Shown here piece after piece: positions 12,858-61,623 of a stretch of 64,000 nucleotides of DNA. The position numbers and the translations under genes were made by a program. The notes below the pieces were generated by a model that was not told the DNA's origin, searched no databases, and saw only the letters and a program-made list of their open reading frames with translations. Source of the DNA: Patellaria atrata CBS 101060 (lineage: Eukaryota). Position 1 is the first letter of the stretch; each line of letters opens with the position of its first letter. The stretch covers positions 1,847,561 through 1,911,560 of the forward strand of contig MU006089.1 of assembly GCA_010093705.1 (NCBI GenBank), given 5' to 3'.

Positions 12858-13717
12858 TCAATTTAAATGGCGGGCGAGCGGTTGTGGTGTCTGCACTCCA
12901 AGCACTGCCATGCTGGGCACAGATGCGGTTTCAATACGTTATCGTCTATACTCTGTATTGATGTTATGACAGAAGATTGGAATTGTACAGTATAGCACAG
13001 TATGGATGAGTAGTCGTCCTATAGATTAGTATAACAGAAGAACAGTATTCGAGAACGTTTCCCTTTGCTTAGAAGACGATAAGTGGGCTAGAAAGATTTA
13101 TCTGAAATAAGACTCTCAAACGCTTTACCTCTTTATACAAGCGAGAGTAGAATTAGAGAATTAGAGAACGCGATAACTTATGGGCTAGCTTGATCCCTTC
13201 ATCGCAAGCCTAACCGAACTGAGACAATCCGAAATCTCGATAGGGCAAAGTCACCAATGAGATTTCACCTTCTCTAACCGATCTTTAGCATCGCATTCGT
13301 CCCTTGTACCATCGTATCACCTTCTAACCGACATTTATAGATCCAACAGACCAATATCAAACACCATGACCCGCTCAAAGGTTTGTGCTGACCTCGTATT
13401 CATTTTCCTTTCTCCTACATCCCACATTTTGTCATTTTGCGTATTTTCTTCTCCCTGATATCAGTAGTACTTTCCTTTGATTCTCTTCATCATTATTCTT
13501 ATTCTTCAATATTGTCTCCTCGTCAAACCCTCCTCGTTCCGCTGTTCCACCCGCATCATAGATAGGATCTATCCCACGGTACCATATCCAAAACCCACAT
13601 TGACACGCTGTGAAAAGAACATTCAAACTATCCGACACGTGTCGAAGCAAACAAACATATAACCTACACAACCTACCAAATCGCTCAACGAAAGATCCCT
13701 TCCCAAACTCCACCACC

Positions 13718-14728
13718 ATGGCGGGCCACTTGCTCCCAAACATAGCAGACTGCTACTCGCGCAGCTACGAGCTCCGCAAAGCGTGCCGGGAAGCCTGCAC
13801 CCTCGACACGTGCCCCTTCGACCTCTCCTACTGGGGCTACCTCCCCTCCCTCTCCGCCAACGCCGCCTTCCTCGCCCTCTTCACCCTCTCCCTCCTCCTC
13901 TTCCTCTTCCAAGCCGCCCTCTCCCGCCGCTTCCTCGGCTTCACCTTCGCCATGGTATCCGGCTGCATCCTCGAAGTGATCGGCTACATCGGCCGAATAA
14001 TGAGCCACAACAACCCCTTCCAAGAAGCCGGCTTCCTAATGCAAATCGTGTGTCTCACCATCGCGCCCGCCTTCCTCGCCGCGGGCATCTACCTCTGCCT
14101 CTCGCGCATCGTGCTCACCTTCGGTGCCGAAAACTCCCGCATAAAACCCCTCTCCTATCCGCGCATCTTCATCCCCTGCGACATCCTGAGCCTCGTCCTC
14201 CAGGCCGCCGGCGGCGGCTACGCCAGCGCCCGCACCCACAACGACCAAGACCCCACGGCGGGGAACAATATCATGATCGCCGGTCTCGCCTTCCAGGTAG
14301 CCACGCTCTTCGTCTTCATCCTGCTCTCCTGCGACTTCGCCGTCCGGACTCACGGCCGCATCCGCTCGCTCGGCCGCGCGCAAGCCCTCGATCCCGCCCA
14401 CGCTAAACTCCGTGATAGCTGGGCCTTCAAAGGGTTTCTCGTTTCCCTCGCCCTTTCTACTTTGTGTATTTTTACGAGGAGCGTGTATCGTGTGGCCGAG
14501 CTGTCGGAGGGCTGGAATGGCCATTTGATCAATACGCAGAGGTATTTCATCGGCCTGGAGGGCGCGTGCGTCATTGCCGCCGTGTTGGTCCTGAATGCGT
14601 TTCATCCTGGCCTCTGTTTCAAGGAAGGGGATACCGCGGAACGAGGGTGTTTTGGGTTTGGGCGGAGGAGAAACAGGGGGGAGAAGGGTGGTGGGAGTGG
14701 TGCGGAGAGTCCGGTTGTTGCCTCGTAG
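13718..14728 (+). CDS. RTA1/RSB1-like lipid-translocating exporter (7-TM); 5' end uncertain
   Basis: Motifs are CTLDTCP...SYWGYLPSLSAN, LEVIGYIGRI, QIVCLTIAPAFLAAGIY, DILSLVLQAAGGG, AGLAFQV and RSVYRVAELSEGWNG. A short upstream exon near ATG 13366 is possible. Confidence 0.9.
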   Translation: MAGHLLPNIADCYSRSYELRKACREACTLDTCPFDLSYWGYLPSLSANAAFLALFTLSLLLFLFQAALSRRFLGFTFAMVSGCILEVIGYIGRIMSHNNPFQEAGFLMQIVCLTIAPAFLAAGIYLCLSRIVLTFGAENSRIKPLSYPRIFIPCDILSLVLQAAGGGYASARTHNDQDPTAGNNIMIAGLAFQVATLFVFILLSCDFAVRTHGRIRSLGRAQALDPAHAKLRDSWAFKGFLVSLALSTLCIFTRSVYRVAELSEGWNGHLINTQRYFIGLEGACVIAAVLVLNAFHPGLCFKEGDTAERGCFGFGRRRNRGEKGGGSGAESPVVAS

Positions 14729-15330: not shown

Positions 15331-17655
15331 TCATACGATCCGTACTTCTTGCCACCTCTCGACAGACTCTTTGGTCATGGCTTCTCCGAACATGAAACCA
15401 TGAACATACGCTTCTCCGACAATTTGCCAGGCATCCCCTTTTGGCCTCAGAATATGAAAGACCCTACTGCCGTCGAGGAGCCAAATCTGGTCGCCCTCCC
15501 CCAACGCGATGGAACCGATCCCGACATATCCTTTTGCCGTTACGAAAGCCCGTTTGCCAATCCAAACTTCGCGGCTGATGGATATCCAGAACCCCTTGAA
15601 ACCGGAGAACCGTCCGTCAAATCGTGACGGGAGTCCGGCAAGAGTTTCCTCCTCCAAGTCCTCCCACTCTTCGTCCGGGTTCTGTGCCGGCATGTACCTT
15701 CTCCTAGATGCTCTCCAGGAGCTTTCGAGCGCACGTTCCTCACTGGGAATCGCCTCTAGCAGAAACTCCAATGGTTCTGACCACCCCTTGGAGGGTTCAG
15801 TGTCTACGTACTTATCACGCTGTAATAGAATCTCAGTAGCCGTTATAAGATGCCGAAGATGTTCCGTATCGGCGCCTTTTTTGGTCATGACTTTGAGTAG
15901 AATTTCGTACGTCCACCTTAGAAACCTGACCAGGTATTGTACCTGGGGAGGGAACTTCCTCCAGCCACCGTCGGCAACTAAAGCTCCAGTTAGAGCCTCC
16001 AGTGGTGTGCTCCCGTCGACATACGGATATGCTATATTGGGGTACAGATTCAGTAATGACGTTATCTCCTCAGAATCAGTCGCGTAAGGTGTGAAAAGTT
16101 CAAGCGGGGCGGAAATATGACGGACTGTGTCTATTCTCAATCCGAGGACTGACAACACACTTCCGATTACTCGAGGGCGCCAAAAAGGACGTCCGACGTA
16201 GGAGGCGTCGAATCGTTCGCTGAAGCTGCTAAATACCAACAGGCTCTCCAAGAGGGGGCGAGAGAAATCCGGCACCCAAGACGGCAAGGTCTTATAGGTT
16301 TTCTCCGCTGTATTTCCAAGGAATGATAGCATGGACAAGGTGGGAAGATTTTCGACAAGCTGAGTGGCAACGGAGAGATACAATTCTTCAACAGGCATAC
16401 GATAATCTACCCTGATCTCTGCTCCTCCCGGCTTCTCGAAAAATTTGGAAGTGACTCCTAACGCCGCGTAGATCTTGTCATGTGGGAGAGAAAGATGTCT
16501 CCAGCGAAGCGTCCCCAGCAATTGCTCTAAACAAAGCCACCACGAATGATCCCCTGCTCCCAATGCGAGCCCGTGGATTTGTCTAGAATAGCTGTTATCA
16601 TGTTCTCTTAGGCCTCGAAGTGATTCCAGGTCTCTAATCGCATATCCCGATGATTTCTCGGGCGAAAATGGATATACCCATGGACCCATTGTGCTCTTGT
16701 CCCATGCTGTCCAATGAAGAAGGAAGGCAACGTCGACGAAGAGTGACCAATTTAGAGTATACGGACCATACATGACAGTTATTTCTTTTCCCAAAGCTAT
16801 CTCCTGAGCAATCCAGCCCCGATAGAAGTAGCTACAGGTTAGATAGATGTTGCTGTATATATCCCACACGTATCTCCAGTTCTCAAAGCTGGGAAATTGC
16901 CCAACTCTACGCAAATTATAATCCAGCTCTTTGGATGCCTGCGGGGGCCAGTCCTCACGCCGTTGCATTTCAGCCTTCATCGCCGGAACTGAGATAGTGT
17001 GAACCCAGATAAAGTCTTTGACTTCTGCGTTGTCTGAGTCACATTCTCCCAACCACGCGATCACCCGTGTGGCTGAAGCATATATATTCCCCATAAGAGC
17101 TACTTGCTGAGCTCTTTCGTCCAGGTCCTCTTGATTTATGCAGATTGCGTCAACCCATAGCTTGGGATACGTTTGGGTTTGATTTTCCCCTCTTGTCTTG
17201 AATAATCGGCCCAGCGCATTATAGAGATTGAGGCGTATCCATATGAGCTTTCCATCGCAGAGAATGGTAGACCGCTGTGCGTCTCTTTCCCTATCTCGTT
17301 CGGTAGGCGGACGATTTTTGTAACCTGAAGTGTACCAATGGCAGCCCCAAGTATAGGACAACGCTTCGTAAGACAGCAGCTCCGTATCAAGATCCACGAT
17401 CTGTAGAGAGCACTCGAATCCGGGTGGAGACGAGCTCTCTTTTAGTTCAAGAAGACGAATATGGTTACTAGACGGGAGAGGTTGGTAGACATACCAATCA
17501 CCCTGAATACCCGCACCAGGCGGGGGTGAAGGTAAGGGAGAGGGAGTTGGAGGGGGAGGATGATACGGCTGGTCATGTGGATGGTCGGGTGGAATTATTG
17601 GGTGTGGGCTGGGGTTGAGGTCTGGTGAGGGTTGATATCTAAAAGATAATGCCAT
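15331..17655 (-). CDS. Heterokaryon incompatibility (HET domain, HET-6-like) protein, intact, 774 aa
   Basis: Single ORF with YEALSYTWG, LWVDAICINQEDLDERAQQVALMGNIYASA, YFYRGWIAQEI, DKIYAALG, LPSWVPDF and the C-terminal GEAYVHGFMFGEA block. Confidence 0.92.
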   Translation of the reverse strand: MALSFRYQPSPDLNPSPHPIIPPDHPHDQPYHPPPPTPSPLPSPPPGAGIQGDWYVYQPLPSSNHIRLLELKESSSPPGFECSLQIVDLDTELLSYEALSYTWGCHWYTSGYKNRPPTERDRERDAQRSTILCDGKLIWIRLNLYNALGRLFKTRGENQTQTYPKLWVDAICINQEDLDERAQQVALMGNIYASATRVIAWLGECDSDNAEVKDFIWVHTISVPAMKAEMQRREDWPPQASKELDYNLRRVGQFPSFENWRYVWDIYSNIYLTCSYFYRGWIAQEIALGKEITVMYGPYTLNWSLFVDVAFLLHWTAWDKSTMGPWVYPFSPEKSSGYAIRDLESLRGLREHDNSYSRQIHGLALGAGDHSWWLCLEQLLGTLRWRHLSLPHDKIYAALGVTSKFFEKPGGAEIRVDYRMPVEELYLSVATQLVENLPTLSMLSFLGNTAEKTYKTLPSWVPDFSRPLLESLLVFSSFSERFDASYVGRPFWRPRVIGSVLSVLGLRIDTVRHISAPLELFTPYATDSEEITSLLNLYPNIAYPYVDGSTPLEALTGALVADGGWRKFPPQVQYLVRFLRWTYEILLKVMTKKGADTEHLRHLITATEILLQRDKYVDTEPSKGWSEPLEFLLEAIPSEERALESSWRASRRRYMPAQNPDEEWEDLEEETLAGLPSRFDGRFSGFKGFWISISREVWIGKRAFVTAKGYVGIGSIALGEGDQIWLLDGSRVFHILRPKGDAWQIVGEAYVHGFMFGEAMTKESVERWQEVRIV

Positions 17656-18881
17656 CCCGAAGCAACCTTACTTCGTTTTGATGGGGTGGATTCCTCTTTT
17701 CCAAAGCTTTGATTAGAAGTATCACTGGGCTCCACTATACAGGAATGGACTGAGCTGTACGAAGGACCTCGCTCATACAGTCTATGAAATCTCTAGGACG
17801 GGTGTTGTCGATCTTCCGAGGCCAGCATATGTTATGGAGAATTGAATGCAAGAAAAGGGCTAAAGGTTCATACATTTATTAATGGGACACGAACGAGAAC
17901 ATACTGGAAAACAAAATTCCAAGGTTAACGTGCTTGGGGAACAATATTGGTTACCGATATACTGGAGATCGTATACCGATAGTACACTGAATGCATTCCT
18001 TGGGGGCGAGTAAGATAGTTATGGGACGCCAACAAGGCTATCGACCTATGTGAGGTTGCCGTGCCGTCGTGAAAGTAGCAGACACCTGCAGAAGGGGCTT
18101 GATCTCCGCGCCTACTCAGCTGCGAGGCTGACCACGAACACAAGGCCTCGGCCTCTGAGATCTCTTCTTTGAAGTCAAGCTTTGTGTTTGCCCCATCGTC
18201 GTCTGAATTGATTTCTTTAAGTGGCGCGGAGAACAACCCTCACTCCAAATCAAGCTTATGAACTTTGCACATCAAGCATCGAGTCATTGCACAGCTGGAA
18301 CAGGACTCACGTTTGGTGACCCCAACCCGTATCGGCTGCTTCCCGTCTGATCCAAGGAGACCATGGAGCCTCGTTAAGCGCTGGGGTTCGGCGGCTAATT
18401 GTTTTAGATGACGCACTGTGCAACCGTTTGTGTGCAAACTTTGCGTGTGGTAAAGGTCAAGATTACAGTGCAAATGTTGGGGTTGACCGGATGCTTAGGA
18501 CATACCTATATGTACTATGTAATACACCAAACAAGTACGGCCCTTTTCCCGTTAACTCCCCAGTGGTGGATTATATTGCTAAGCCTTTGTACCTTTGCGG
18601 AATAACTACTGACCGGATCTTAAGCCCAGGAAATCGATAGGTTCCCGAATCGATATTTCTGGGTTACTCCTGGGCTTACTATCCCTTCGTCTGGCCCGAA
18701 CTTTTTCTACAGCAGAGTCAAGACTCTTCTTATATGAGCGTGAGATAAGCGGGAACGGCGTGGACGGAAACTCTACAACGTTCTATACAGGTGCGAGCAA
18801 GATCCAAGATCAACTGTTCTTTCAACGCTGTATAGATTTTCCCGTTCACCGTTTGTGTCATCTTGAGGGGTACTAAAACTG

Positions 18882-21098
18882 TTATCCTCTGCCAAAGGCT
18901 AATTTCTGTTGTCCTTTCTCTACTCGGCTCGAACGTTCAGAAGAAGTCGAGCCAGCATTGTTGGAAGGTCTTCCTCTTCCACCTCCTTTTGCTTTAGCTA
19001 TTTTGGGTCTTTCCAAGCTTGAGTGACTCCGGCCTGCTTGTTCCCCTTGAATCCTCTCATTATCACGGAGTTCTTTCGCCAAAGCTTTGGCAAAGTGCCA
19101 GTCTTCATGCTCTTCCTTTTGATGGATTGGGATAAGTGTTTCATTCGAACAACGGGAGCAAAGAAACGATTCAATAGTGAATTGATGCTGCGGTGGTATG
19201 ACAGTTTTCGTAGAGACAGTAAGGGGAACAGTCGATGCTTTATTTCGCTTCCTTAAATTGAGGGTAGAACTAGATTTATGGTTCGGATGCTCAGATGAGA
19301 ACGGATGATGTACCGAACCACAAGGGTCATGTTGAGCAGACGGAGGTATATTGTCGGAAACCGCTTCTTTACTGTTAACTGGCGAACGAATAGGAGGGGA
19401 TAATTTCTTCATAGTCACTTGTTCGTGACCTTGGTCCGTAGTCGAATATTCGGAATCAGTATGGCCTTCTATTCCTGAACCAGGAGATGCATCAGTTGCA
19501 GAGAAGAATCTATCAATTTTGAGCTTTTCGTCCTCACTAGATCTATGGGAGACCAGTTTTCGTTTCTTGTAAGGATGCTCGTATTCTTGTCGATCCGAGA
19601 TATGAGATGCTTCGCGTTCGCTATCTAACATTGCTTTTGCTTCGTCTCCGCGAACTAAGAATCCCCCGATGCTTTGATTACCCGTCACGCCCTCCTCCCA
19701 ACCACCGACACTCAGACTCAGATTAGAGCAAGGCCATGCTCGGCCGTCAGCAACTATTTGAGCCAGGAGCAGTTTGGAAGAATTGAGTAGCATTTCTTCG
19801 GAAAGAGTTTTGCTCATCGGCAAAGGCGATTGCTTGGATCGTGTCTGTTGTCCAGTTCGGTAATGCAAATTAATAGTTTTGGGACGTCTCCTATTCTCTA
19901 ATACGCCCTCTTCTACGCACCTACTAAATATATCTGCTGCAAAAATCCGTAGCCAGCGAACCGCGGTTGGAAAGTCGTTTATAGAAGGTCTGAAACTCTT
20001 TGCTGAAAGCATAGATTTGATTGCAACGCGTGGATTAACCTCGCTTTTGTCCTCTCCTCGGATAGTGTTATAAAGCCATGTCCCAGTCTCTTCCCCCAAA
20101 TTCTTAATGAATTGTTCTAGTGAAACACCAAGGAGATCAGACACAGTATCTGTGCTAAACATAGCAACAACTTCGTCTCCAAGTTTACCACCCAGATTTC
20201 GAATCTTGGTGAATTTGAAACTTGAAAGAAAGTGTGATACGGCACGATTGCGTATGACAGTCTGTGCATTAGGCTTTTGATGTCCGGAGCCCAGTTTAGC
20301 AAGCATTTTGTTGCGTGCAATGCCGCTACTACATGTGTAGTGGAGAAAATCATATATGTTCTTCCGGACATTTCTTACTATCTCAGAACCTATCAATATC
20401 GCAATATCATCCCAGTCGGGATCATCATCTTCAGATGCCGTTATATCAAGATCGATCAATGCATCTGTCTGCCAATCTAGTGCTGTGGTAGTGGGCCGAG
20501 GAAGATTTTCGGTGGCATCGTCATAAGGGGGTGGGCCCCGAAGCTCCGGATAGCGTTCTAGCAGTAGGTCGTAAACATGTTTCGATAAATCCAAGAATAC
20601 CTCATCAATACTAGCCTTTTCTACCCGTTGTGTGTCAGGTAGGCTATCTTTAATTGTCTTCAAGATCTTTCGAGATTCCATTCGATAAGGATCCAAAGAG
20701 ACCTTGTGTGTACCCATGTGTTTCCATGCGTCCTCATGGTACGCCCATTTCTCATCGCCCTCTTTCCACGTTGCCACGTGCTGCATTATCAGTTCTGGAC
20801 ATATCTTTCTGGCTTCCGTGGCGGTGACGTGCCTCGTTAGGCCGTATTTCCTGGCGGGGTAATTAATAGCTATAAGACCTTGCCATTGCTGAACAGCTAG
20901 AGGTTGATCGGGTTGTACATCCAGTCGCACCATCTCACATTGTGCGTAGAACGCATCGAGGTCGATATGAGCAACAACGCGTAGCGGAGAGGCAGTTGAA
21001 TATTGTGATAGGAGGGACAGATGTTTATAGGTGAATCGTGACTTCTGACCACGCGTCAGGGAGCAATGGGAGGACTCGAGGAACGGTGGTGAAGACAT
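18882..21098 (-). CDS. RAD30: DNA polymerase eta (Y-family translesion polymerase)
   Basis: Catalytic HIDLDAFYAQCE, IAINYPAR and KASIDEVFLD motifs; NKMLAKLGS; KSMLSAKSF little finger; C-terminal UBZ zinc finger CSRC...EHEDWHFA. Single exon. Confidence 0.95.
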   Translation of the reverse strand: MSSPPFLESSHCSLTRGQKSRFTYKHLSLLSQYSTASPLRVVAHIDLDAFYAQCEMVRLDVQPDQPLAVQQWQGLIAINYPARKYGLTRHVTATEARKICPELIMQHVATWKEGDEKWAYHEDAWKHMGTHKVSLDPYRMESRKILKTIKDSLPDTQRVEKASIDEVFLDLSKHVYDLLLERYPELRGPPPYDDATENLPRPTTTALDWQTDALIDLDITASEDDDPDWDDIAILIGSEIVRNVRKNIYDFLHYTCSSGIARNKMLAKLGSGHQKPNAQTVIRNRAVSHFLSSFKFTKIRNLGGKLGDEVVAMFSTDTVSDLLGVSLEQFIKNLGEETGTWLYNTIRGEDKSEVNPRVAIKSMLSAKSFRPSINDFPTAVRWLRIFAADIFSRCVEEGVLENRRRPKTINLHYRTGQQTRSKQSPLPMSKTLSEEMLLNSSKLLLAQIVADGRAWPCSNLSLSVGGWEEGVTGNQSIGGFLVRGDEAKAMLDSEREASHISDRQEYEHPYKKRKLVSHRSSEDEKLKIDRFFSATDASPGSGIEGHTDSEYSTTDQGHEQVTMKKLSPPIRSPVNSKEAVSDNIPPSAQHDPCGSVHHPFSSEHPNHKSSSTLNLRKRNKASTVPLTVSTKTVIPPQHQFTIESFLCSRCSNETLIPIHQKEEHEDWHFAKALAKELRDNERIQGEQAGRSHSSLERPKIAKAKGGGRGRPSNNAGSTSSERSSRVEKGQQKLAFGRG

Positions 21099-21834
21099 TG
21101 TTGATGATATCGCAAGATATAAACATCATACATGGTTATGCCATGGATATATCATTGCTTTATGTAGGTGTACTGTACTTTGTACAGTATAAGTGGTGTT
21201 GTTAAACGACTGGGGCGCGTCAAGTTTTCGCCAAATCACGTGTGTGCTTCTCACACGACGACATCACCTTAGTGACAGTAGTGACATCAAGGAAAGAGGT
21301 GATTCACTCTAGCTCTTCCTGCGAAGGTAGATGCATTACTAATAAAACTAGGACTTACTCTGCACCCGTAAATATAAGTATTTGCTGTGCGTAACAGCAT
21401 ACTATGAAAATGGTGTTTTAGGATATCAGTTCAACCGCTCTGTAAGGTAGTTCTACTTCCGTGCAGAAGTACAGACTTGAGCGCGTCCTAGTCCCTACCT
21501 CGGTCATACCTTTCAACATGTTCATGGAGGACCTGATATCGAACCTGCTATACGCCAAGGACCCCTAGATGCGTTTTGAGGGGTAGGGTACAGTAACATT
21601 AAATGTGCCTTATGTGCCGAGGTACTTAGTCCCCAGTTATGCACCAAAAGCGAATAATTATGCAGTTCAAAGGGCGTGGTTGGTATTGAACAGCGCTTAT
21701 AACCCTCTCCACGCTGCATTCCAAAGTCGGAGAGTTGCTATAATTTGTACGGAGTACAGGTAACAGTGGTGAAATACAGAGGTAATTATCTTCACGTCGG
21801 AAACCATAGAGTACTGTGCCATACGTACTGTACC

Positions 21835-27913: not shown

Positions 27914-30614
27914 TTATCCCAATCTCGCACGTTCCACTCCAACAAGTCGCTCAAAGGAAACCATTACCCACGCAAGAGCCTGGTCAACATCTCGCATATG
28001 ATCCCATCCAACAGGCCAAAGCCGAAGCATCCAACCTCCTGTTCCATACGCGCCGGTGCCGACCTTATAATTGCTTACGCCAGCGCCAAAATACTCGAGT
28101 ACGTTCCAGACTGGGGCGAGCAGATCCACAAGCGCAATTTGAAGGGGACCAGCTTCCGGGATGGAGTCATCGGTAGAGGCGAACGGGGAGAAGCCGGCTG
28201 GTACGTCCATCGCCGGGGCCGGACGATGTGCAAAGCTGAGAGCCTCCGTACGTGTGACGGAGTTGGCTGAACCCCAGGCGCGGCCGACAGACCGATTGGC
28301 TGCCATGGGGAAAAGCATCCAGCCAGCGAGGAACAGCATACAGGCGACTAGGATGAGTGGAGAACCGTAGGTCTTCCAGAAGGGGATGGGCTCTGCCTCC
28401 TTTACGATGTATACAGTGGTGGAGGGGGCTTCCACCACAAGGGCCGGATCTGTCTGGGTTGAGACGGACGCGACGGCAACGGAGCAGACCGTGGGCTCGT
28501 ACGAGAACACCTCCACGACGGGGGAGAGCTCGAGCTTCGGCGCAGCCGGAGCAGCAACGGTCTGCGTCCCGGATGAACTATACGGGACGGGATGGCCAAC
28601 GGGCTCGTACGACATGATCTCCTTGATACCGGAGAGAGAGATATCAATTACAGCCGGAACTGCAATTGTCTGCGTCCCACTTGAACGGTATGAGACGGAA
28701 TGCTCAACTGGCTCGTATGACATGATTTCCTTGATACCAGAGAGAGCGATATCTGGTACAGCCGAAGCTGCAATTGTCTGCGTCCCGGATGAATGGTACG
28801 AGACGGAACGCTCAACTGGCTCGTACGATATGATCTCCTTAATACCGGAGAGAGCGAGATCAGCTGCAACGGGAGCTGCAACTGTCTGCATCCCACATAA
28901 ACTGTAAGAGACATGGTGTTCAATTAGTTCAGAGGAAACAATTTCCTTGATCCCGGAGAATGCGAGATTGGTTACAGCAGGAACTAGATCTGCCTGCGTC
29001 CCAAACGAACTGTAAGAGACGGAGCGTTCAATGGGTTCAGAAGCAATCTCCTTGATACCGGTGAGAGTGAAAGCAGCTACAGCGGGAGCTGCAACTGTCT
29101 GCGTCCCGCATGAACTGTAGGAGACGGAATGTTCAACTGGTTCAGAAGCAATCTCCTTGATGCCGGAGAGAGCGGGAGCAGCTACGGCGGGAGCTGTAAC
29201 TGTCTGCGTCCCATATGAACGGTAAGAGACGGAGTCTTCAATGGGTTCAGAGGAGGCAATCTCCTTGATGCCGGAGAATGTGAGATTGGTTACAGCCGGA
29301 ACAGGTGCGACCTGCATACGTTCCGCATGTTCGTCTGTATCAGTCATGATCTCGTCCGCCAGTGATAGAGTCGGTATAGGTAATCCCGAAGCTTGCTGCA
29401 AGATAGCATACCGCTGGTGAATTTCTTCGAGATCAGCAGTGACTTTTTCAAGTTTCTCTTCCCGAGCGTTAAGTTCATGATAACACGCCTCGAGATTAGC
29501 GGTGAGAAGCCTAGAGTCTCTGTCCTGCGCGATGCGTTGGGTTTCGAGCATTTCGAACGCAGCGAGGTTCTCTCCGAGTCTAGCGATTTCCGCATCACGT
29601 TCATGGATTGCTACTTTGGCATCGTTTATGTCGCTTTGAAGTCGTTTCTCAGACACTTGAAGGTGATCAACCCGTACTCGGAGTTCATCGTGATGGATCG
29701 TCTTCTCATTGTTGGCTCGTCTCTCATTCTCAATTTGGGCCATGCACTGGTCGAGAAACTGTTTGGTCTCTTCATACGTCTTTTGTAAGTCTGTGAGTTT
29801 TTCCTTGGTCTCGCGAGCTTCGTTATGATGAACTGCGACATCTCGCTGGAGTCGCTGCGACAACTCCCTGTAGTCGCGGCTCTTCGTCCAGACTTCCTCG
29901 AACCTTTGTTCGCCTCGTTGAATTGATTCTTCGCTGAATTTAATTTGCTCTTGGAGTTCTTCCTTCTCGCCTTCGAGCTTAACAATTTCTACATGGAGCT
30001 CTTCGATCCGTTCATTGAGAGAGTAGTTTTCACCTTCAAGCTTCGTGATCTCTTGACCCGCTATCTGCAATTCTGTCTGCTCAGGAACCTCGCTCCCATC
30101 TTGATCATCCATGCCGTCTCTGTAGTGATCAGGATCCACGATTTGTATGTCTTGATTTATTGAGTACGCATCCTCCTCCTCGTCCATGCCGTCGCTTGAG
30201 CTGCCGCTGTCGCTTTTATTCTCGCCTGCGTTATCACCTGGTGCAATGTTCGAATTATTGAGCCTGGCTTCAATTTCATCTGATTCACCAGACAATACCA
30301 GCCATTTGTATCTAATAGCACGGCTGCCAGGTTGAGCGATTGGTCGATTATTTGCTTGAGCGAAGCTTGTTGGAGGTCCCTCGGGTCCGTCGAATCGCGC
30401 TGTACCGAAAACGGAATGATAAGCACAAAGACATAAAAAATCCCAACGACTCCAAAATCAACTTACCTTCTTGGTCAATGCCAAATTGGAATTTGGAGTT
30501 TCCAGCCGTTTCCGATTCGATTTCGTGGTAGTGCTCCTGGTCTTCTGCGTATGGACCTTGTTCGATCTCATCGCTTGGGCGCTTGATGTTTTTACCCTTG
30601 CCGTAATTACTCAT
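27914..30614 (-). CDS. Coiled-coil protein with tandem TQT-motif repeats and C-terminal TM segment; 2 exons
   Basis: ATG at 30614 (MSNYGKGK). Intron 30466-30400 (GTAAGT...TACAG) joins in frame to the 793-codon ORF. It has an E/K/Q/R-rich heptad region, eight repeats and a hydrophobic LILVACMLFLAGWMLF segment. Confidence 0.85.
28450..29297 (-). repeat. Coding minisatellite: about 8 units of 105-108 bp (35-36 aa)
   Basis: Units read LSGIKEIxSxEPVEHSVSYxSxGTQTVAAPA. At DNA level ctccttgat(a/g)ccggaga and tgtctgcgtccc recur. Confidence 0.9.
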
Positions 30615-32498
30615 GGTAATTGTTAGTTTGAATTTGTTCAGAGGTCGTAAATATGATTGATTGGAAAGAAGATGTAGGAAGTGTCTGAAGAATGAAGCTG
30701 TAGGATGTGTTGGACAAGAAAGCTGTTGGAAGTGTTGAAGAAGGAGGAAGGATTTTTGAGGACAACACAACAATAACATTGAATTTATTTTATGAGCCAG
30801 CGATAGACCGAAGTAACGGCTATTGTCACATGGTGAAGGGGCTGTCGCTACTGTTGGTGACAATAGTCGGGCGACTATTGTTTGATCAGTGTTCTTTGAC
30901 AGACTGTCACCAGTGTGAATGCCATAGACCACAATAGCTACGTAATGCTTCACACTATCCGCTCCCACTTCAAGCCGTCGACTCCGCCGTAGAGGTAAGG
31001 CGAGAACAGAAAAGAGATTCAAGGTATACAATCAACTGGCTATACCGATCTACGCTTATTATTTAGGTCGCCAATAGACTCCACCAATACCTATCATTCA
31101 CATGCCGCAGGTCAACGTGGTTATGCTTGGTGAATAGCTTAGTAGCTGTTGCTTGATGCAACTATCTAGTAGCTACTCAAATCTCAGTCACTTTTTCTTG
31201 TCGTATCTCATACTCCTTCTCCTTTCATGACGCTCTCTCAAACCGTCTCCAACCTCGCTACACTATAAAGATGAAACCACGGAGTTAAGTTATTTAATTG
31301 GATCAATTTGTATTGTCCAGTCACTTTATATAGTTCATCTTATTTGTAGAGTTCAGTCATTTTATACTACGAATGTCTCATAAGCGTATAAAAGACACTA
31401 AGATGCCAATCGCAACAGGAAAGGTGATGAATAATCTCATTTCTCATCAAGGCATCCTTCACATGTACGCTCGCTTTCAAAATGGTTCTGGACTTGCCGC
31501 ATAAAAGAGTTGAAAACCCGAATCACCTCCAATCGTATGTGGGACTTGACCAAACAGACAATAGAGATATGTTAACTCTGTGATATTGAGCACTCTCCCA
31601 GGAATGATTCGATAAGAGCAAAAAGGGTAATGAATATCAACCGTGGCGGGGACATCATACTTTGAGATGTGAGCAAACCTTACACTAGCCTCACTCTTTA
31701 CCATTTGTCACATCGCGCAGGCTATAATTTATAGTTCATTTCAAATACTTATGAAGACTAAAGTCGACAAATGTCACCATTGCTCGATTGATGCAGTGAG
31801 CTAGACAAAAGATTTCAAATGTGTAGAGCAAACTGACATGACAAGACTGTTATATACCTACATCAGACAATCTGTGCGAGGTGTCCACGGCAAACCTCGA
31901 AACACCTATCATGATCTATGTCTGACTTGTCCACTGAGAAGAGCGTGTCAAGTGTACAGCAATCAGAAAGTAAACTTAGCAAGGAGAGAGATATGACACG
32001 CCATATACCACAAGTCAATTTTTATAGTGCAGTCTAGTTCTGACTTCACCTCGGGGGTGTATAGTGGGTTCGAAGGCTCTTATTCAAAGCAGGCATACAG
32101 TACCCTAGAAATACCATTTCATACCAAGGAAAGGCGTTACTACAGAAATGAAAAAAAACTCTTTGCGATGGTATTCAGCAGTGAATCTATAGCAAAATAT
32201 TTACTCCTGGCTTGTGAGACGCGGTTCAACTGAGTCGTTTCCTCGTTGCGTCATACTGCATGAAGCCTAATGCAACTTACAACCTTACTTAAGACTAGGG
32301 GCAAGATCCCTGGCCTACGATAACTCCGCGCTTAGATACGGAGGTTCCCCTCTCATATACAGTTTCGTGATATTTTGGATAAAGACCACTAGAAACCATT
32401 GGCTCATTTGCTACTTTTCAGACTGGAGGAATCGAGTCCTCCCTCGGCCTGTACTGTACAGATACAAGTTCAAGTGGAGATACCAGAGGTAATCCAAC

Positions 32499-34136
32499 AT
32501 GACCGTCAAAGCTGATAGTAGTGATACGCCCGCAAGACTCCCATCTGAGCATCCAACGGTGTCATTCTGGCATAGTGAACCATCAGAGTTCCTCTTAGGT
32601 CACCACACAACCCCTGAGCTTCCAGAGTGCGCGGACATTGTGATTATTGGTAGTGGCATCACCGGGACGTCCATAGCGAGATTTCTGGCCGACGACTCCA
32701 GGAGCGATGGCAAAAGTATTGTCATGTTGGAAGCTCGAGAAGCTTGTTGGGGTGCTACAGGTCGAGTAAGACACTCACTATGAAAAGTTGCGCTGGGACT
32801 TTTTGAGCGAATTATGTCTGATGTGCAAGCAACTAGAACGGCGGTCACTGCCAACCCCTTCTTTTCGACCGCACACCCGAAATCGCGGAGTTCGAGCTCG
32901 CCAATATAGCGGCGGTGAAGTCGTACATCGAAGCGAACGAGATCCCATGTGAATGGCGGAGCGTGACGGGATGTCGTAGCTTCTGGTCCGAAGAGATCAT
33001 GAGCATGGCTGAGCGTGCGGTCGCAGCGCTCAAGAAAGCTCGACCAGATATCGGCAAGCTCATTACTATCACCCGCGATCCGGAGATCATGAAGCAGCAT
33101 CGGATTCAGGGTGCTGTGGGGATCACCTTGACGGAGGGCGCGGGACAGCTTTGGCCGTATAAGTATGTGGCGTATATATTGGAAAAACTAATTAAGAACG
33201 GCAGATTGAATTTGCAGGTTAAGACAACAGTTACAGCGATTGAGCAGATTCCGACGACAATGTTAGGGGATGCTCAGGGGGCAAGGTACGTGGTCCAGAC
33301 AAGATCAGGCAATATCAGAGCACGCCATGTCGCTCTGGCGACGAATGGATACACATCACATCTTCTTCCTGAGTTCACTGACCTCATTGTGCCATGTCGA
33401 GGGGAAATGTCAGCTCTGCTACCCCCTGAAGGGTCCAGCCGTCTACCAAACTCTTATGGTTTTCAAGGAGCTAAGGGACACAACATAAATCACGATGAAT
33501 ATTTGGTTCAACGCCCGTTCCAGGATGTTCCAAATCCAGCTGGACACCTAATGTTCGGCGGGGGTCGGGGAGTTGAGAAAGAGGAATCTTTAGGTCTTGA
33601 TGATGACTCCGTGATTGACGAGGATGCCGCAAAGTATTTGAGAAAAACATTACTCGAGTCACTCATTCTTGGGGGGAATGCGAAGGATTTGAAGGAACTG
33701 AAAGCTACTCATGAGTGGACGGGAATCATGGGATATTCGAGGGATGATACGCCTTGGTATGTGAAGAATACTGCTCTTTAAAGCCCCGCTGACAGTGTAG
33801 GGTCGGTCCTATCCCAGATAATCCCGGCCTTTGGCTAGCTGGTGGGTATACTGGTAGGTATATCACATATCATGGTTATAGACTTGGTAAGGCTAACAAC
33901 ATTCAGGCCATGGAATGCCAAATGGAACTCTCTGCGGAAAAGCTCTTGCCAACATGATACTTACCTGGGAGGAGGGACTAGACTTAGAGAATACGGAAGA
34001 CCTGCACAGAGCGGGTGGAGAGATGCCTCGGTCCTACTTAGTCACCACGGAGAGATTGAAACAAGCTCGGAATATGCCCACAGTAATGGAATCTGATCGA
34101 TTAGGGCTATTCCGTCTATATGTAGGTTCAGCATAA
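32499..34136 (+). CDS. FAD-dependent oxidoreductase (DAO family); 4 exons
   Basis: Dinucleotide-binding VIIGSGITG motif, EAREACWGATGR|NGGH, LATNGYTSHLLP, WTGIMGYSRD and GYT|GHGMP. Introns are 32766-32836, 33757-33800 and 33854-33906. Confidence 0.9.
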
Positions 34137-46443: not shown

Positions 46444-46738
46444 AGACGTTTGCATATCGAAGATAATACTACTTCACTAGCACACGAGAATCATGCTAAA
46501 CTAAGTATTCAATGTTTGTATAGATATTATGTCGTTGAAAGATAATAATATACAAACATTCGTCGTCTCGTGATTGAAAGCTGTGAATGGTGCAGTGTTA
46601 CCCCGCCAACAATCGGGCTAGCCCAAAGCGGTTAAATGTATACACCTAAATGTCTTCCACTCAACTTCTACACTTTCATCACTCTCTTTTATCCAGACTC
46701 CGAGACCGCAATTGGAGTCCCACAATACACTTGTTGAT

Positions 46739-48640
46739 ATGCCTCGCAAACAAGTCTACGGAAAACGTGCCAGAACATTCGCCTACACCTCTCTCACTCC
46801 ACTGGGGGATTGGTCCAGTCCCGGCAAGTTGCCGAATGAAGATGAAAAAGTGCAGGATATCATCAAAGAGTTTGGTGCACTATCGGTGCAGCCAGATAAT
46901 AAACCAGACAAAGCTAGGGAAGAGAAGACAAGGAGGGTTCTAAAGGCGAAGGATACAAATATTCAGCCATGCTTGGATAAAGGCAAAAAGGATGGGAAGC
47001 TTAAGAAGAATACTATTTCCGTAGAAGAGGTTATTATTGTCCAAGGAAAGAATATAGATATAGAATCTTCTCATGATCAGAAAGGCGAGAATGAAGAAAA
47101 GAGTAAGGAGAAAAAGAATGGAGGACAGCATTGCGTAAGCCGAAAGTCCAAGGCATCCTGTAACAATACTATCGAGGAACAAGAGGGAGAGACAATCGCC
47201 GTAGCTCCAGATTTAAAGCAATCCGAAAAGAAGCCGCCATTACGGACGCCTGTCAGAAAATCTCAAGGCTCAACTCTCCCACCCCTTTCTAGACCAGACG
47301 ATCCTCTGACGAGGTATACCACTCCGTTACTAGACCTCTGCCGCGATCAAAAGGCAAGAATATGCCCACTACCATTTGCGGAGTCTCTCGCTGAGTTCGA
47401 GGATACAGTTCAGGTAGTCAAGCTTGCTGAAGCATCCTTTAGCGAGGTCTACCGACTATCAACTAAGGCACACATCGGGACAAAGTACGAAGGCGTCTGG
47501 AAACTGATGGCCTTAAAACCACCTCCCGAATGTATACCGAAAGATTTTTCAGAAAAGGAGGAGGACAAACTAGCATACATGAGTGCGGTGGATAATGTTC
47601 TCTCAGAGTTACGGCTGCTGAATCATATGACGGAAGTCCCTGGTTTTACCGTATTTCGAGATCTACGTGTCTTTCTGGGTCCACCCCCGAAACCGTTTGT
47701 GAGCGCCTGGAGAGCATACAACAAAGCGCAGCCGAAAGGAAAGAAGAGCGAGTTCCCAGATCCAGGAAAAAAGGGGAGCTACGGCCTAGACCAACTGTGG
47801 ATTGCCATCGAGATGGGAGACGCAGGCACAGACTTGGAGAAGATCCTCGAAAGAGGAAACAAACTCAGCGTATGGCAAGCATGGGACATCTTCTGGGGGG
47901 TAGCCATCGCCGTTGGCAAGGGGGAAGAAATAGCAGAGTTCGAGCACCGTGATCTCCACCTCGGAAATATATGTATCCGCTCGCCCAATCCATCAAACTC
48001 TCTCCATCCCAGCGATTCCATCAACTCTTCCCTCACTCTCGGCGCTACAGGTCTCAGTGTAACCATCATCGACTACACACTCTCCCGCGCTAAAATGCGA
48101 CCTTCGCGCCCCGACTCCTCCACGGATGCTGAGCAGATAGCGTTCTACCCCCTCTCCACCGACCCCGCTATTTTCGAAGGCGACGCCGCGGAAAACTACC
48201 AGTACGCGATGTACCGGCACATGCGCTCTCTCTTCCTCACCTCATCCGCCCTCACTACGCTCAACGGGCGCAAACTCAAGGCTGCAGAAGCGAAGAAGTC
48301 GTGGCGGGAGTTCTGTCCCGGCACGAATCTCGTATGGTTGCATTTCGTGCTCGACCAGTTGTTAGCGAATCTTGTGCCTGTGGATACGGACGAGTTGGAC
48401 ATTACTATACAGGAGAAGGGAAGAGAGTTGCATAAACGATTGAGGGAATTACAAGCATGGCTTGAACTGCAGAACCTTGGTGTCGAGGGTGGGTTGAGGG
48501 GCGCGGCGGATTTGGTGGGTGTCGCGGTTGAGGAGGGGTGGTTGACTGCTGAGGATGTGATTGGGGAGGTGGAGGGAGATGGTGTGAGGAGCGAGGGGAA
48601 GAGGAAGAGGAGGCGGCGGAGGATTGAGAAGGTGGAGTGA
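46739..48640 (+). CDS. Haspin-family Ser/Thr protein kinase
   Basis: MPRKQVYGKR start, KLAEASFSEVY, FEHRDLHLGNICI, the haspin-specific IIDYTLSRA, QYAMYRHMR and TNLVWLHF. Confidence 0.92.
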   Translation: MPRKQVYGKRARTFAYTSLTPLGDWSSPGKLPNEDEKVQDIIKEFGALSVQPDNKPDKAREEKTRRVLKAKDTNIQPCLDKGKKDGKLKKNTISVEEVIIVQGKNIDIESSHDQKGENEEKSKEKKNGGQHCVSRKSKASCNNTIEEQEGETIAVAPDLKQSEKKPPLRTPVRKSQGSTLPPLSRPDDPLTRYTTPLLDLCRDQKARICPLPFAESLAEFEDTVQVVKLAEASFSEVYRLSTKAHIGTKYEGVWKLMALKPPPECIPKDFSEKEEDKLAYMSAVDNVLSELRLLNHMTEVPGFTVFRDLRVFLGPPPKPFVSAWRAYNKAQPKGKKSEFPDPGKKGSYGLDQLWIAIEMGDAGTDLEKILERGNKLSVWQAWDIFWGVAIAVGKGEEIAEFEHRDLHLGNICIRSPNPSNSLHPSDSINSSLTLGATGLSVTIIDYTLSRAKMRPSRPDSSTDAEQIAFYPLSTDPAIFEGDAAENYQYAMYRHMRSLFLTSSALTTLNGRKLKAAEAKKSWREFCPGTNLVWLHFVLDQLLANLVPVDTDELDITIQEKGRELHKRLRELQAWLELQNLGVEGGLRGAADLVGVAVEEGWLTAEDVIGEVEGDGVRSEGKRKRRRRRIEKVE

Positions 48641-52689: not shown

Positions 52690-53969
52690 ACAGACTCGAA
52701 GGATACATAATACATCCGTTCTTGGTGGAAATACTAAGCTGGTATTGACGAGAGAGTGTTATTGCAACCTAAACAATGATCAAGTGTCTACACTCTTGTG
52801 AAGGGGATATATGGTTTTGTTGTATGTCTTTCTGGTATTCTCTAAATGGTTCTAAGGTGGTACTAATATCAAAGCAGGCCACCACCAAGATAGGTACCGG
52901 AGTTAATCGGTAGCCTCAATATAGTGAAAGATCAATGGTGCGTGGATTTTTTTCAGATAATAGTCACCGGATACACCCAGCCCCCATGGCTTAGTCACAA
53001 ACGATATAAACACGAATCTTCCCATAACACTATATCATGAATCTTAGGTAACATGGTCTCAACAATACCTCTAAAACCGCATGATTCCTTTTTCCGCTAC
53101 ACTTTTGCGTAATTGTACATTTAGGAGATGTCATTTGACAAAGAGCAACAAACATTGAGTGTTCTCCGGGGAAGTTTTTGGCCTTGGTGAATGGGCAAGC
53201 TTCGTTATCCTCATCGTCTCTCATCTGAGTTGGTCTAACAAGACGACACTGGCGTCTGCTAGTCCTTGCACCTAAGGTAAAAAAATGTGTGAGTTGAGGT
53301 TGGACTGTAGGAGGTGCGTATAACTTGTCCTTGCAAAACTAGAGAAGTAAGAATTATCCAAATGTCAACATACCTATATGATATTTCTATTCAATGCATT
53401 CTCGTCGGCATCTCATTGTACAATCCGGTATGCAGAATCTATCTCCGGCTTCGCGTAGGTCTGTGAGCTGCACCTCGTTCAAGACGCAAGGCCGAAAACT
53501 TTACGCTCCATCCAGACCATCATGCAGTATTCCCAAACGAACAGTTCTCAGCCTATGCGTGGGCCAATTATCAGAACTGGAATTACCCTTTCACCGGTCT
53601 TTGCTGCAGCTCAAAAGATGAAAGATGGCACCAAAGCGCGCGGGGCTATTGTGTCGATCAGCCTTGTCTATGGGTCTCCAATTTGCAACTTTTCTTACCT
53701 GCAGTTGTCCTAAAGGATGTACCTGTCCCGGTTGGAAGGGGTAGTCGAGGAGCGCCTCCAGCCTGGGCGTTAAACTAGAAAATCAACTATAGTAACCGCC
53801 GATATGCGGCTATAACTGTACACAAAATACTATACTGAGCACCCCCCTAAAAAGATCCACAAACGTGAGTACTTCATTTGAATGGTACAGCCGAATCCAT
53901 ACTCCTTTCCGCGCAACGTACTGCTAGCGTACTGTATGCTCTCTCGGGTCATCTGCAGGGAGGGTAGAC

Positions 53970-55888
53970 ATGGATTTGTTCCAATATACGGAGCTTCCAA
54001 ATTCTCAGAGCATCCGGATCCTCACACTTCATCCGGGATCGTACCATGACGAGATAACATGTTCCCTCTCGGTATCCCAACTCGACAATCTGGAGAAATA
54101 TGAAGCTATCTCATACACTTGGGGTGATGCCAAGATAGCGGAAGAGATTTCGGTTGGTGATTCCAGACTGGCTATCACTACGAATCTAATCGGAGCTCTG
54201 CGTCGTTTTAGACTAGAAGACCGGGATAGAAAGCTATGGGCAGACGCGATCTGCATCAATCAACATAATCTTTCGGAGAGAAGTCAACAAGTTGGGATCA
54301 TGAGAGATATATTCCAAAAGGCATCAAGAACATTTGTCTGGCTTGGTGAAGAGTCCCCGTCAGATCTGCCACCAATTGAAGCAATAAAGAGAATTGAAGA
54401 AGCAATCGCCGAGAAAATAAAGGGAATTAAACGAGATTATATTGAAGAAGCGATAGATAAGGAAAGTACACAAGTCATCAAACGAATACTTAGCTTCATC
54501 CCAGCCGAGAAAACATTGTTTACATCCGTATTGACTGACGGCAGTCTCAGTCCATCCGAATCCTATAACTCAACAATGAGCTTAAGGGAAGCACCCAAAC
54601 ATGAATCAGATTTGCCCCCTCATGCTTCAACCAGTAAAAGTCCACTTACCATACCTCTCTTTACGTTGTTCAGCCGCCCATGGTTTGAACATGCATGGGT
54701 CATGCAAGAAGTTTCCATGAGTTCCGAATTACTTATGCATCATGGGCGTTTTCAGTCCCACTGGAATCTCTTCGCTCAAGGTGCAAATTGTATCCTCAAC
54801 CATCCTGCTTGGCCAGTTTCCAGGGGAAGAGGAGGTTTCTTGTCTACCGCATGTATCAATACTAGTTTACATGCCTACGCCCGACAACAAATTAGTACCG
54901 TTGCAAGATGCGATCTTAGCCTCCTTTTAGTTATGATGAGAGAAAATACCAAGGCAACAGATCCCCGGGACAAGGTCTTTTCGCTCCTCGGCCTTGTTAA
55001 GGAACAATTTCAGCAACAAATACCAATCGATTACGCCGCTCGAGTTGAAACAGTCTATACTCAAGCGACCATTTCTGCCCTTACCCCTAATACTGGTTTT
55101 CATATACTGCGTGCTGCTGGACAGAAGAACTTGAAAAACACACATTTGCCGCTACCATCATGGATCCCAGATTACTCTCTTGTAAATCAAGGAATACTGG
55201 GATTTGGGTGGAAGCCATATACTGCTGGGGGAACTGAACCTCCTTTATTCTGGCATGAAAAAGATATTTCCGTGTTGGGAATGTACGGCAGATTATGCGG
55301 TAGGGTTAACGATATGATACCCCCTAGGGGCGACAGGGACTGGGATCCAAAAGATAAATACTCTTTCTCAAACCTGGATGCACAACATTGGCAAAAGTCC
55401 TACCATTCGTATTCGATAAAAATCATATATACTTAGTTGAGAACATGGATGGTGTCTATTAGAGGTTAATGATCTGCGATATTAGTACGTCTGGAACGCC
55501 TCAGGGGCTTCTTTGGACGCAGAAGGCTCAGGACGTTTACAGAAACTTGTATCTTGACAATCGCGTTAGTGACAGTCACATGACCTCAAACAATTTATCG
55601 GATGACCCCGACGTCAGAGGAGCACAACTTCAATATAGATTCGATTATAGGCCAGATGGACTCTGTAATAATCTGTGTTGGTGCGATTCGGGGCATCTGG
55701 GATGGGTGCCCCTGGATACTCAAGTTGGCGATTATTGGGTACTCTTCAAAGGCGCGCCCAAGCCATTCATATTGAGGAAAAATGAGGATGGACATATGAT
55801 CTTGATCGGAGAGGCTTATATTCACGGTGTAATGTGGGGAGAGGCGCTAGTTGAAGGGTTGGAATGGGATACAATTACGCTTCATTGA
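53970..55888 (+). pseudogene. HET-domain (HET-6-like) gene disrupted by a frameshift and a premature stop
   Basis: YEAISYTWG, LWADAICINQ, DPRDKVFSLLG and LPSWIPD lie in one frame. The terminal GEAYIHGVMWGEA block lies in another frame preceded by TAG at 55460. No frame-restoring intron was found. Confidence 0.75.
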
Positions 55889-60600: not shown

Positions 60601-61623
60601 AACAAGAAAGAAGGAAACACTTTTTGGATTTCTTATCTCCATTGTTGCTGTGTATTCCCTCAAAACTGCTTAGCACCGTTCAACCTTCTCACTGGCTGCA
60701 CGACAAACCCTTCGACTTCCTTGACCCGTTCAGAAGTTGAGAACCTCAGATGCGCCTCGATTCCTCCCCAAATCGATTGCTTTTTTCTCCCTCATCTTTC
60801 ACTCCCGAGTCTTCTTTTACAAACTCGGAGGAGTCTTATCGTCTGAAAACCGTACTGAGCCGCAATTCAATCGCTGAAGAGTTGCTCTAAGCTACCGCTA
60901 AGCGTCGGCACGAGCACGCGTTGCCGAAAGCAAGAGCCAACCCTTAGGTTTACCTACCCTTTTCCTCGAACCTCGAGTCGACCAGGGCTACCTAAACCTT
61001 ACAACCACTTGCAGTCTTGCGCGAAACCCAAGTGCGCGCCCACCACCTTTTTCCAGCACACCATCCGTCACAGACCACCCAGCAATCATTCATTGGCTTT
61101 TCTGCCTGTAAGTCGACCGCGCAAACTCCAATCACCTGCGCTGCACCAACTGCATGCGCCCGTCCTTTTTCTCAATTCCAATCTAGCGCCCGGTTTCAAC
61201 GCCAGTGACCTCTTATCCGACCGTCTTTTTTCTCATCGCGATACATACACTCACTTGTTCTACCCTCACTTACCTCACTCCGCCCTCTTCGCCATTCTCC
61301 GGACCCTTCGCGCGAGGCGTACAATATCCTTTTCATCCGTGTTGACCTTTCGCAATTCCTAGAGTCCGTGGTTCTCAACTCCTGGAAGCCCGTTTGGCGC
61401 TCGTTTTGGGTATTCCTTCCGCACCGATCTACCTCAGCCTCCCACCCTGCATAGTCTCCGGTTCTCGCGATTGAGAGTCTAGGGTCCGCAGTAATTCAAC
61501 ACTTGTATCGTGCGCTTCCTCAACGCGACAGCGACTCTTGGGAAGCTTATCCACCAAGGTACCACACGCGCGGTGCCTTTGTCTTAGATACTACCACCAC
61601 GAGAGTGGAACTCGAACAAAGAA

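Follow-up and report, generated by a model that had tools for sequence, protein, structure and literature searches.

A membrane-anchored coiled-coil protein of Patellaria atrata with eight TQT-bearing repeats, a tentative candidate for LC8 binding

Why would a fungal membrane protein carry eight repeats of nearly constant length, most of which end in the TQT anchor of LC8 ligands? The question is posed by a gene on the minus strand of a 64,000-nucleotide stretch of contig MU006089.1 from the Dothideomycete Patellaria atrata CBS 101060 (GenBank assembly GCA_010093705.1, positions 1,847,561 to 1,911,560; hereafter the window). An initial annotation, made from the letters of this DNA alone, had interpreted the product as a membrane-anchored coiled-coil protein and a candidate scaffold for the dynein light chain LC8 or organelle tether. 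Our analysis upholds the parts of that protein, namely the acidic head, the coil, the TQT array, the transmembrane helix and the tail, whereas the proposed KASH-like or Num1/ApsA-like identity and the recent expansion of the repeats fall away. The repeats are old and under purifying selection, and the zippering of a paired stalk by LC8 at a subset of candidate sites is the best single mechanism that we can offer for them, one that we advance tentatively.

Repeat units and protein architecture

Residue numbers given for the anatomy refer to P0001, the 827-residue translation of 27914-30397. The eight repeats measure 36, 35, 35, 36, 36, 36, 36 and 36 residues in order and end in GTQT, GTQT, GTQA, GMQT, GTQT, GTQT, GTQT and STQT, so that the lengths and endings listed in the initial annotation match the translation exactly. 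Tandem Repeats Finder reported a period of 108 bp (7.1 copies, 74% matches, score 625) and, at 28543-29233, a super-period of 216 bp with a higher score (3.2 copies, score 714), and the identity matrix pairs unit 1 with unit 4 and unit 2 with units 3 and 5; this pattern suggests that the array grew by two-unit blocks. High similarity between the units at the DNA level had been taken as a sign of recent expansion. That idea is unsupported, because DNA identities run from 46 to 85% (66-85% among units 1-7, 46-59% between unit 8 and the others) and pairwise synonymous divergence (dS) from 0.23 to 2.3 (0.23-1.45 among units 1-7, with the highest values in comparisons with unit 8). The ratio of nonsynonymous to synonymous divergence (dN/dS) was below 1 in every one of the 28 unit pairs, 22 of which had values of 0.5 or less, and the array is therefore a selected protein sequence. 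Changes from unit to unit are not dominated by C-to-T and G-to-A (38 of 121, equal to the 38 counted for T-to-C plus A-to-G).

An array kept for so long as protein makes the gene more likely to be real, and the age of the repeats disfavors an origin de novo. The same evidence bears on the reading that the gene is non-functional, an unexpressed or decaying open reading frame (ORF) whose repeats drift neutrally. Such a reading would account for the lack of any homologue among 5.8 billion or 1.84 billion proteins and sits well with the presence of two HET-domain genes in the window, genes of this class often marking variable regions. An open frame of 847 codons, however, cannot arise by chance, dN/dS stays below 1 across the full range of dS, and the coil, the repeats and a strongly hydrophobic transmembrane helix form a coherent domain grammar, which together leave neutral decay highly improbable.

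Within the 36-column unit, 18 columns are identical in at least seven of the eight repeats, and E16, S19, E21, V27 and Q35 are invariant. The exact TQT anchor is present in six units and its glutamine in all eight; T-Q-T is retained even in unit 8, the most diverged, where little else persists. The 12-base stretch that encodes GTQT is letter-identical in four of the eight units (1, 2, 5 and 6) and the glutamine codon is CAG in all eight, while synonymous differences between units amount to 20-70% elsewhere; DNA-level homogenization at the unit boundary or codon preference could produce this identity.

The rest of the anatomy likewise agrees with the first description. The N-terminus is acidic (net charge -17 over residues 1-112; 42 D+E against 15 K+R in the first 185 residues of the spliced model described below), and the coiled coil, put at about 230 residues, spans about 224 by heptad score and AlphaFold2 (AF2). 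Heptad scores reach 0.72, 28-residue windows inside the segment hold at most two Pro or Gly, and AF2 draws helices at 39-158 and 164-267 (P0002 numbering) with predicted local distance difference test (pLDDT) values of 70-91 in 10-residue blocks. Pfam matches on the coil were sub-threshold and fell on coiled-coil families, the best being a crescentin rod (E 0.001, 18.6 bits against a cutoff of 100). Behind the array stands a single strong hydrophobic helix (mean Kyte-Doolittle hydropathy, KD, of 2.3), followed by a tail in which both the W..AN..TR motif and the terminal FERLVGVERARLG are present, the last letters being VERARLG; no Pfam family, homologue or structural look-alike of the tail was found.

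The orientation of this helix bears on the access of LC8 to the repeats. Because none of three candidate starts yields a signal-peptide-like N-terminus (best 10-residue KD -1.04, 0.16 and 0.94) and the single strong transmembrane helix lies behind the array, 128 residues from the C-terminus, the array should be cytosolic under the established rules of membrane insertion and so within reach of LC8. We regard this predicted orientation as the most likely one, and the 128-residue tail would then be luminal or external. The luminal or extracellular placement of the repeats that had been feared at the outset is thus not what the signal-peptide and transmembrane analysis points to. The helix is preceded by a flank of net charge 0 and followed by one of +2, which counts the other way, weakly favoring the opposite of an N-in arrangement, and a second, weakly hydrophobic helix in the tail (residues 749-772, KD 1.39) could form a hairpin with the first, a caveat on the topology.

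Two more specific identities had been proposed for a protein of this layout. KASH proteins carry a C-terminal transmembrane helix and then a luminal peptide of about 30 residues with a conserved terminal motif; here there is no KASH domain among the 11 Pfam matches at E<=10, and the tail is 128 residues long and lacks a KASH-type end. Anchors of the Num1/ApsA type combine an N-terminal coiled coil with a C-terminal membrane-binding PH domain. Pfam returned neither a PH domain nor a Num1-type family at E<=10, membrane attachment in the present protein is by a transmembrane helix, and we retain neither label.

Candidate LC8 sites and a proposed stalk

To grade the anchors we used Table S4 of Jespersen et al. 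2019 (PMC6607443), a set of 79 binders and of 32 non-binders that contain an anchor, with positions counted by hand. For the candidate 8-mers (positions -5 to +2) a crude likelihood ratio (LR) was formed as the product of binder/non-binder frequency ratios, which rests on small counts and is indicative only (Table 1). The anchor [T/V/I]-Q-[T/V] at -1 to +1 occurs in six units and is broken in unit 3 (TQA) and unit 4 (MQT). Published flank preferences are for a polar residue at -4, for a large or basic one at -3, against a bulky aromatic at -2, and for P, D or E over a hydrophobic residue at +2. In Table S4, Gly at -2 is common among binders (19 of 79, against 6 of 32 non-binders), as is Ser at -4 (20 of 79 against 5 of 32), and Arg at -5, as in units 1 and 6, is found in 12 of 79 and 0 of 32. 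Unit 8 carries the favored Asp at +2 (20 of 79 binders), which unit 3 also has, and it has the six residues SVSTQT in common with the binder CDADC1. Judged against the published tables, two sites look good (6 and 8), two neutral (1 and 5) and two poor (2 and 7), and two have unprecedented anchors (3 and 4).

A poor flank need not be disabling in context. According to the accessible part of the KANK1 report (10.1101/2025.07.16.665182), isolated KANK1 motifs do not bind LC8 and multivalent ones build rods, and the consulted portion of PMC6607443 describes weak LC8 motifs that can bind when they are clustered or adjacent to a coiled coil. Because weak motifs bind if multivalent or coil-adjacent, an array of mixed quality beside a 224-residue coil is a credible client, and the LC8 reading is coherent and weakly supported. 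Complex prediction with two copies of an LC8 stand-in and a 30-residue segment centered on the TQT of unit 6 gave scores of 0.01 and 0.04 against a mark of 0.34, which is no evidence either way, the runs having been made without alignments or controls and with a peptide and a foreign stand-in that lie outside the calibration of the tool. The stand-in was an intronless 97-residue metagenome ORF from another organism (PF01221, E 1.6e-39). A metagenome scan with one conserved LC8 peptide pattern returned at least 121 loci (L001-L121), and among the matches listed about 50 have uninterrupted ORFs of 80-102 residues across the motif, mostly full-length LC8.

The mechanism that we tentatively favor would begin with a protein anchored in the membrane near its C-terminus, its first ~730 residues facing the cytosol, in which the 224-residue coiled coil would form a parallel homodimer. 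Homodimerization would place two copies of the membrane-proximal eight-repeat array in register. LC8 dimers could then hold some of the paired TQT sites together, with units 8 and 6 as the best candidates, units 1 and 5 as possible ones, units 2 and 7 engaged through avidity only, and units 3 and 4 probably inactive. Held in this way through beta-strand addition, the two chains would be zipped up and the stalk would become a stiff rod, which may keep the coiled coil and the acidic head at a distance from the membrane, a logic borrowed from Nup159-Dyn2 and KANK1-LC8. Since the remainder of the unit (LSGIKEI..SYEPVE.SVSY) is equally conserved, it should have a further role, for example in structure or in binding a second partner. 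A more elaborate version, which we think quite unlikely, is a two-component periodic ladder in which LC8 sits on each TQT strand while the LSGIKEI..SYEPVE half folds on top of LC8 or brings in another partner with the same 36-residue period, giving a rigid membrane-to-head spacer of defined length. The titles and abstracts returned by literature searches name no LC8 client that is both transmembrane and built on a regular structural repeat, and we know of none.

Known LC8 clients resemble this protein in part. The DID of Nup159 is likewise fungal and likewise has QT-type anchors arrayed next to a predicted coiled coil; it has five tandem LC8 sites there, and several LC8 dimers join its two chains into a stiff rod (PMC3995210, in the sections available). 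The Nup159 sites, however, are closely spaced, disordered and N-terminal to the coil, whereas those described here are C-terminal to the coil, exactly 35-36 residues apart and set within a hydrophobic, fully conserved unit that is followed by a transmembrane helix, and the two show no sequence similarity. The L2 linker of KANK1, also part of a membrane- or cortex-attached adaptor, offers a case in which many individually weak motifs would turn a linker into a fixed-distance rod; as far as the available text of that report goes (10.1101/2025.07.16.665182), KANK1 is peripheral, its motifs are irregular and lie in a true intrinsically disordered region of 600 residues, and binding is shown, in contrast to the transmembrane protein with candidate sites considered here. 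ASCIZ/ATMIN, with 7-11 TQT sites, shares the feature of many anchors of graded quality per chain (PMC6607443 Table S4), but it is a soluble transcription factor with unconserved linkers of variable length and neither coiled coil nor transmembrane helix. In Swallow and syntaphilin LC8 binds beside a coiled coil and stabilizes the dimer (PMC3995210, as excerpted). In Swallow the LC8 site comes after the coil, the order seen here too, where the candidate sites directly follow a long coiled coil. Each of these two has a single site, with no array or repeat units. Syntaphilin is also anchored by a C-terminal transmembrane helix.

Table 1. Features of the gene, with positions in the window
Feature	Position	Strand	P0001 residues	Basis or comment
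Proposed exon 1	30467..30614	-		49 codons + 1 base; start ATG at 30614, A at -3
Proposed intron, 67 nt, GTAAGT...ACAG	30400..30466	-		predicted from sequence
Exon 2 incl. stop 27914-27916; contains 757-residue ORF	27914..30399	-		open frame
Acidic low-hydropathy N-terminal region, net charge -17	30062..30397	-	1-112	composition; AF2 pLDDT ~40
Coiled coil, ~224 residues	29390..30061	-	113-336	heptad signal + AF2 helices
Eight 35-36-residue repeats	28451..29308	-	364-649	consensus VAAPAVxDLALSGIKEIxSYEPVEHSVSYSSSGTQT
Unit 1 candidate 8-mer RSYGTQTV (-5..+2)	29198..29221	-		LR ~1.1
Unit 2 candidate 8-mer SSCGTQTV	29093..29116	-		LR ~0.25
Unit 3 degenerate anchor SSFGTQAD (Ala +1)	28988..29011	-		Ala +1 in 0/79 binders
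Unit 4 degenerate anchor SLCGMQTV (Met -1, Leu -4)	28880..28903	-		Met -1 in 0/79 binders
Unit 5 candidate 8-mer HSSGTQTI	28772..28795	-		LR ~1.2
Unit 6 candidate 8-mer RSSGTQTI	28664..28687	-		LR ~10
Unit 7 candidate 8-mer SSSGTQTV	28556..28579	-		LR ~0.25; SGTQTV as in non-binder SH3RF2
Unit 8 candidate 8-mer ASVSTQTD	28448..28471	-		LR ~9.8; closest to published rules
Transmembrane helix	28301..28366	-	678-699	19-residue Kyte-Doolittle 2.3; AF2 helix 610-629 (P0002)
C-terminal tail, 128 residues	27917..28300	-	700-827	W..AN..TR, Trp-rich terminal helix

Points against LC8 binding and the alternatives

Several observations weigh against the LC8 reading. Val or Ile stands at +2 in six of the eight units, including five of the six exact anchors, and such residues occur in 2 of 79 binders (MAP4 and 53BP1) and 4 of 32 non-binders (Fisher p 0.056); hydrophobic residues at +2 are called 'not well accommodated' in LC8 sites in the accessible part of PMC6607443. 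The small Ser at -3 in units 5-7, where a large residue is preferred, is found in 4 of 79 binders and 4 of 32 non-binders. The core of unit 7, SGTQTV, is that of the validated non-binder SH3RF2 (Table S4, PMC6607443), and the SVSTQT of unit 8 also recurs in the non-binder KMT2C. None of the 79 binders has the anchor of unit 3 or of unit 4, and the ratios of units 2 and 7 fall well below one. Conservation within the array points the same way, with only 5 of the 18 best-conserved columns inside the LC8 8-mer and 13 outside it, and the TQT motif is no better conserved among the units than 13 other columns. Across species, neither the 5.8-billion nor the 1.84-billion protein set supplied an orthologue in which TQT could be compared with its flanks. 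LC8 sites are described as located in disordered segments (PMC3995210, in the portion consulted), and the composition of the array is not that of such a segment: it is hydrophobic, with 33 V, 35 A and 23 I in 286 residues, its mean hydropathy (H) of 0.529 exceeds the boundary of 0.433, and a charge-hydropathy plot puts each of the eight units on its folded side. In AF2 models built with no alignment the array consists of beta strands (pLDDT 50-67 within the whole protein, 50-75 over this model and that of the array alone), and the near-constant unit length of 35-36 residues points to a structural repeat over a motif carrier.

These last observations lead to a different explanation, in which the array folds by itself into a stalk resembling a beta-solenoid, each unit forming one rung of about four short strands, TQT(V) being one of the strands and the whole being rigid without LC8. 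Modeled alone, again without an alignment, the array came out all-beta with a mean pLDDT of 62.9 and a predicted template modeling score (pTM) of 0.62, and it showed about four strands per unit in a pattern that recurs every ~35 residues, TQT(V) occupying one short strand. VIA-align superposed this model on right-handed beta-helices of the SufD/SufB type, with 9h78_B at the top (Z 16.6, rmsd 3.3, 240 of 303 residues) and 1vh4_A (Z 15.8), 4dn7_B (14.6) and 5awf_A (14.4) among the further rows; beta-helical autotransporters and adhesins came next at Z 9-11. The likeness extends over ~240 residues at Z 14-17 and rmsd 3.3-3.8, but it is accompanied by 4-6% identity, a low-confidence model and an unrelated biology (Fe-S assembly). 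Membership of the SufBD type would thus rest on fold likeness up to Z 16.6 in a model of pLDDT 62.9 from a predictor with a known solenoid bias, which over-predicts models of this kind, and Pfam matched the protein neither to that type nor to any other solenoid family. Foldseek, queried with the array model, gave 0 of 97 matches at E<=0.001, with template modeling (TM) scores of 0.06-0.27, and the pLDDT of the array never reached 90. Cytosolic beta-solenoids, moreover, are rare in eukaryotes. The folded composition, the constant unit length and the conservation of half of the unit columns all speak for such a stalk, and we consider it a serious if somewhat doubtful contender; one reason not to prefer it is the low quality of the ESM Atlas model for the full-length protein (pTM 0.24, pLDDT 0.49).

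The spread of conservation over the unit also suits a flexible or semi-ordered spacer, in which conserved blocks, for example SVSYSSSG or LSGIKEI..SYEPVE, would serve other partners than LC8 for docking or phosphorylation and the TQT would be incidental. The predominance of best-conserved columns outside the 8-mer, the abundance of Ser in the unit, with 46 in the 286 residues of the array, and the partial agreement with the published positional rules for LC8 are what this explanation would lead one to expect. Neither Pfam nor a search of the PDB with the repeat profile, however, matched the blocks to a known motif or family, and an incidental TQT fits poorly with an invariant Q35 and with the persistence of T-Q-T in unit 8, so we rate the spacer as unlikely. 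The TQ dipeptides invite yet another interpretation. An S/TQ cluster domain is defined by at least three S/TQ sites per 100 residues, a density that the array attains with seven TQ sites in 251 residues and three in any window of ~75, and the protein could on that basis be a substrate of an ATM/ATR-type (Tel1/Mec1) kinase at the nuclear envelope or the endoplasmic reticulum (ER). The S/TQ cluster of ASCIZ overlaps its LC8 sites, and the two readings have been confused before. Here the TQ sites descend from one duplicated unit and hence are not independent, and nothing points to nuclear localization, which makes a kinase-substrate domain very improbable.

Clamping by LC8 at a subset of sites remains our tentative choice, and the lead is a reasonable one, less compelling than first scored. 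If LC8 binds, the protein would be a client embedded in the membrane, its sites spaced more regularly than in any client seen so far. It would lend itself to testing how LC8 rods owe their stiffness and length to weak motifs and to the length of the linkers, which is being actively studied for ASCIZ, Nup159 and KANK1, and fungi would be shown to build organelle tethers by LC8 clamping. If LC8 does not bind, the array would be a cautionary case in which duplicated TQT arrays mimic multivalent clients though their flanks match validated non-binders.

Lineage, gene model and surroundings

Searches for relatives returned the protein itself and little else. Against the set of 5.8 billion proteins, both the tail alone (8000 candidates scored) and the whole protein (7999 candidates scored) retrieved only themselves, and phmmer against 1.84 billion representatives gave the protein plus three unrelated low-complexity repeat proteins. 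The ESM Atlas feature search yielded no usable match, and the structure rows of the same resource, with TM scores by query of 0.23-0.83, were to unrelated regions. In the PDB a sequence search with the whole protein found nothing below E 0.19; the top row, the Swallow coiled coil (E >=0.19), was read as coiled-coil bias and set aside, and the repeat profile recovered only a bacterial lectin with SSGTQTV in common (E 0.6). We attribute the orphan status to an unsampled lineage, because the nearest other relatives of the neighboring haspin kinase, such as that of Glonium stellatum, reach only 46-48% identity; a coiled-coil and repeat protein would be undetectable at such an evolutionary distance. 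The gene is real and lineage-restricted, and one genome is its only known source. As an orphan in an order with little sampling, it will be of limited practical use before relatives or expression data become available.

The 757-residue ORF occupies 27914-30187 on the minus strand, and the copy of the gene in the protein database has this form, with its start at 30187. The frame is open further upstream, as far as 30457. A gene reaching up to 30614, as first proposed, proves workable through the predicted 67-nt intron, the removal of which gives an 877-residue frame with no internal stop; inspection of the intron by eye found no clear CTRAY branch site. Two sequencing runs that contain the locus (X1 and X2, from one study) are represented by contigs, probably of genomic DNA, that are identical to the window and show no joints, and they are uninformative on expression or on the intron. 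An upstream in-frame ATG at 30779 would append 55 residues with a weakly hydrophobic start. We rejected it as a signal-peptide start on account of a hydrophobic run of just 5-6 residues (best 10-residue KD 0.94), a poor ATG context and a position inside a CT-rich tandem repeat of the sort common in promoters or the 5' untranslated region (UTR). That repeat has a 25-bp unit in 3.1 copies and covers 30664-30779 on the minus strand, directly upstream of the proposed ATG at 30614, and we judge the region to be promoter or 5' UTR rather than signal peptide.

Two HET-domain ORFs, at 15331-17667 on the minus strand (E 1.7e-23) and 53928-55436 on the plus strand (E 5e-28), mark the genome as that of a filamentous ascomycete. 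Other genes in the window encode a Pol eta-like Y-family polymerase with a UBZ finger (18882-21125, minus strand), the haspin kinase (46622-48640, plus strand), an RTA1-like protein (13604-14728, plus strand), an RRM protein (61588-63420, plus strand) and an FAD oxidoreductase (32837-33781, plus strand), and nothing links any of them functionally to the coiled-coil gene. A 173-residue ORF at 28386-28907 on the plus strand, antisense to the repeats and itself repetitive, looks like a mechanical by-product of the array and not a gene.

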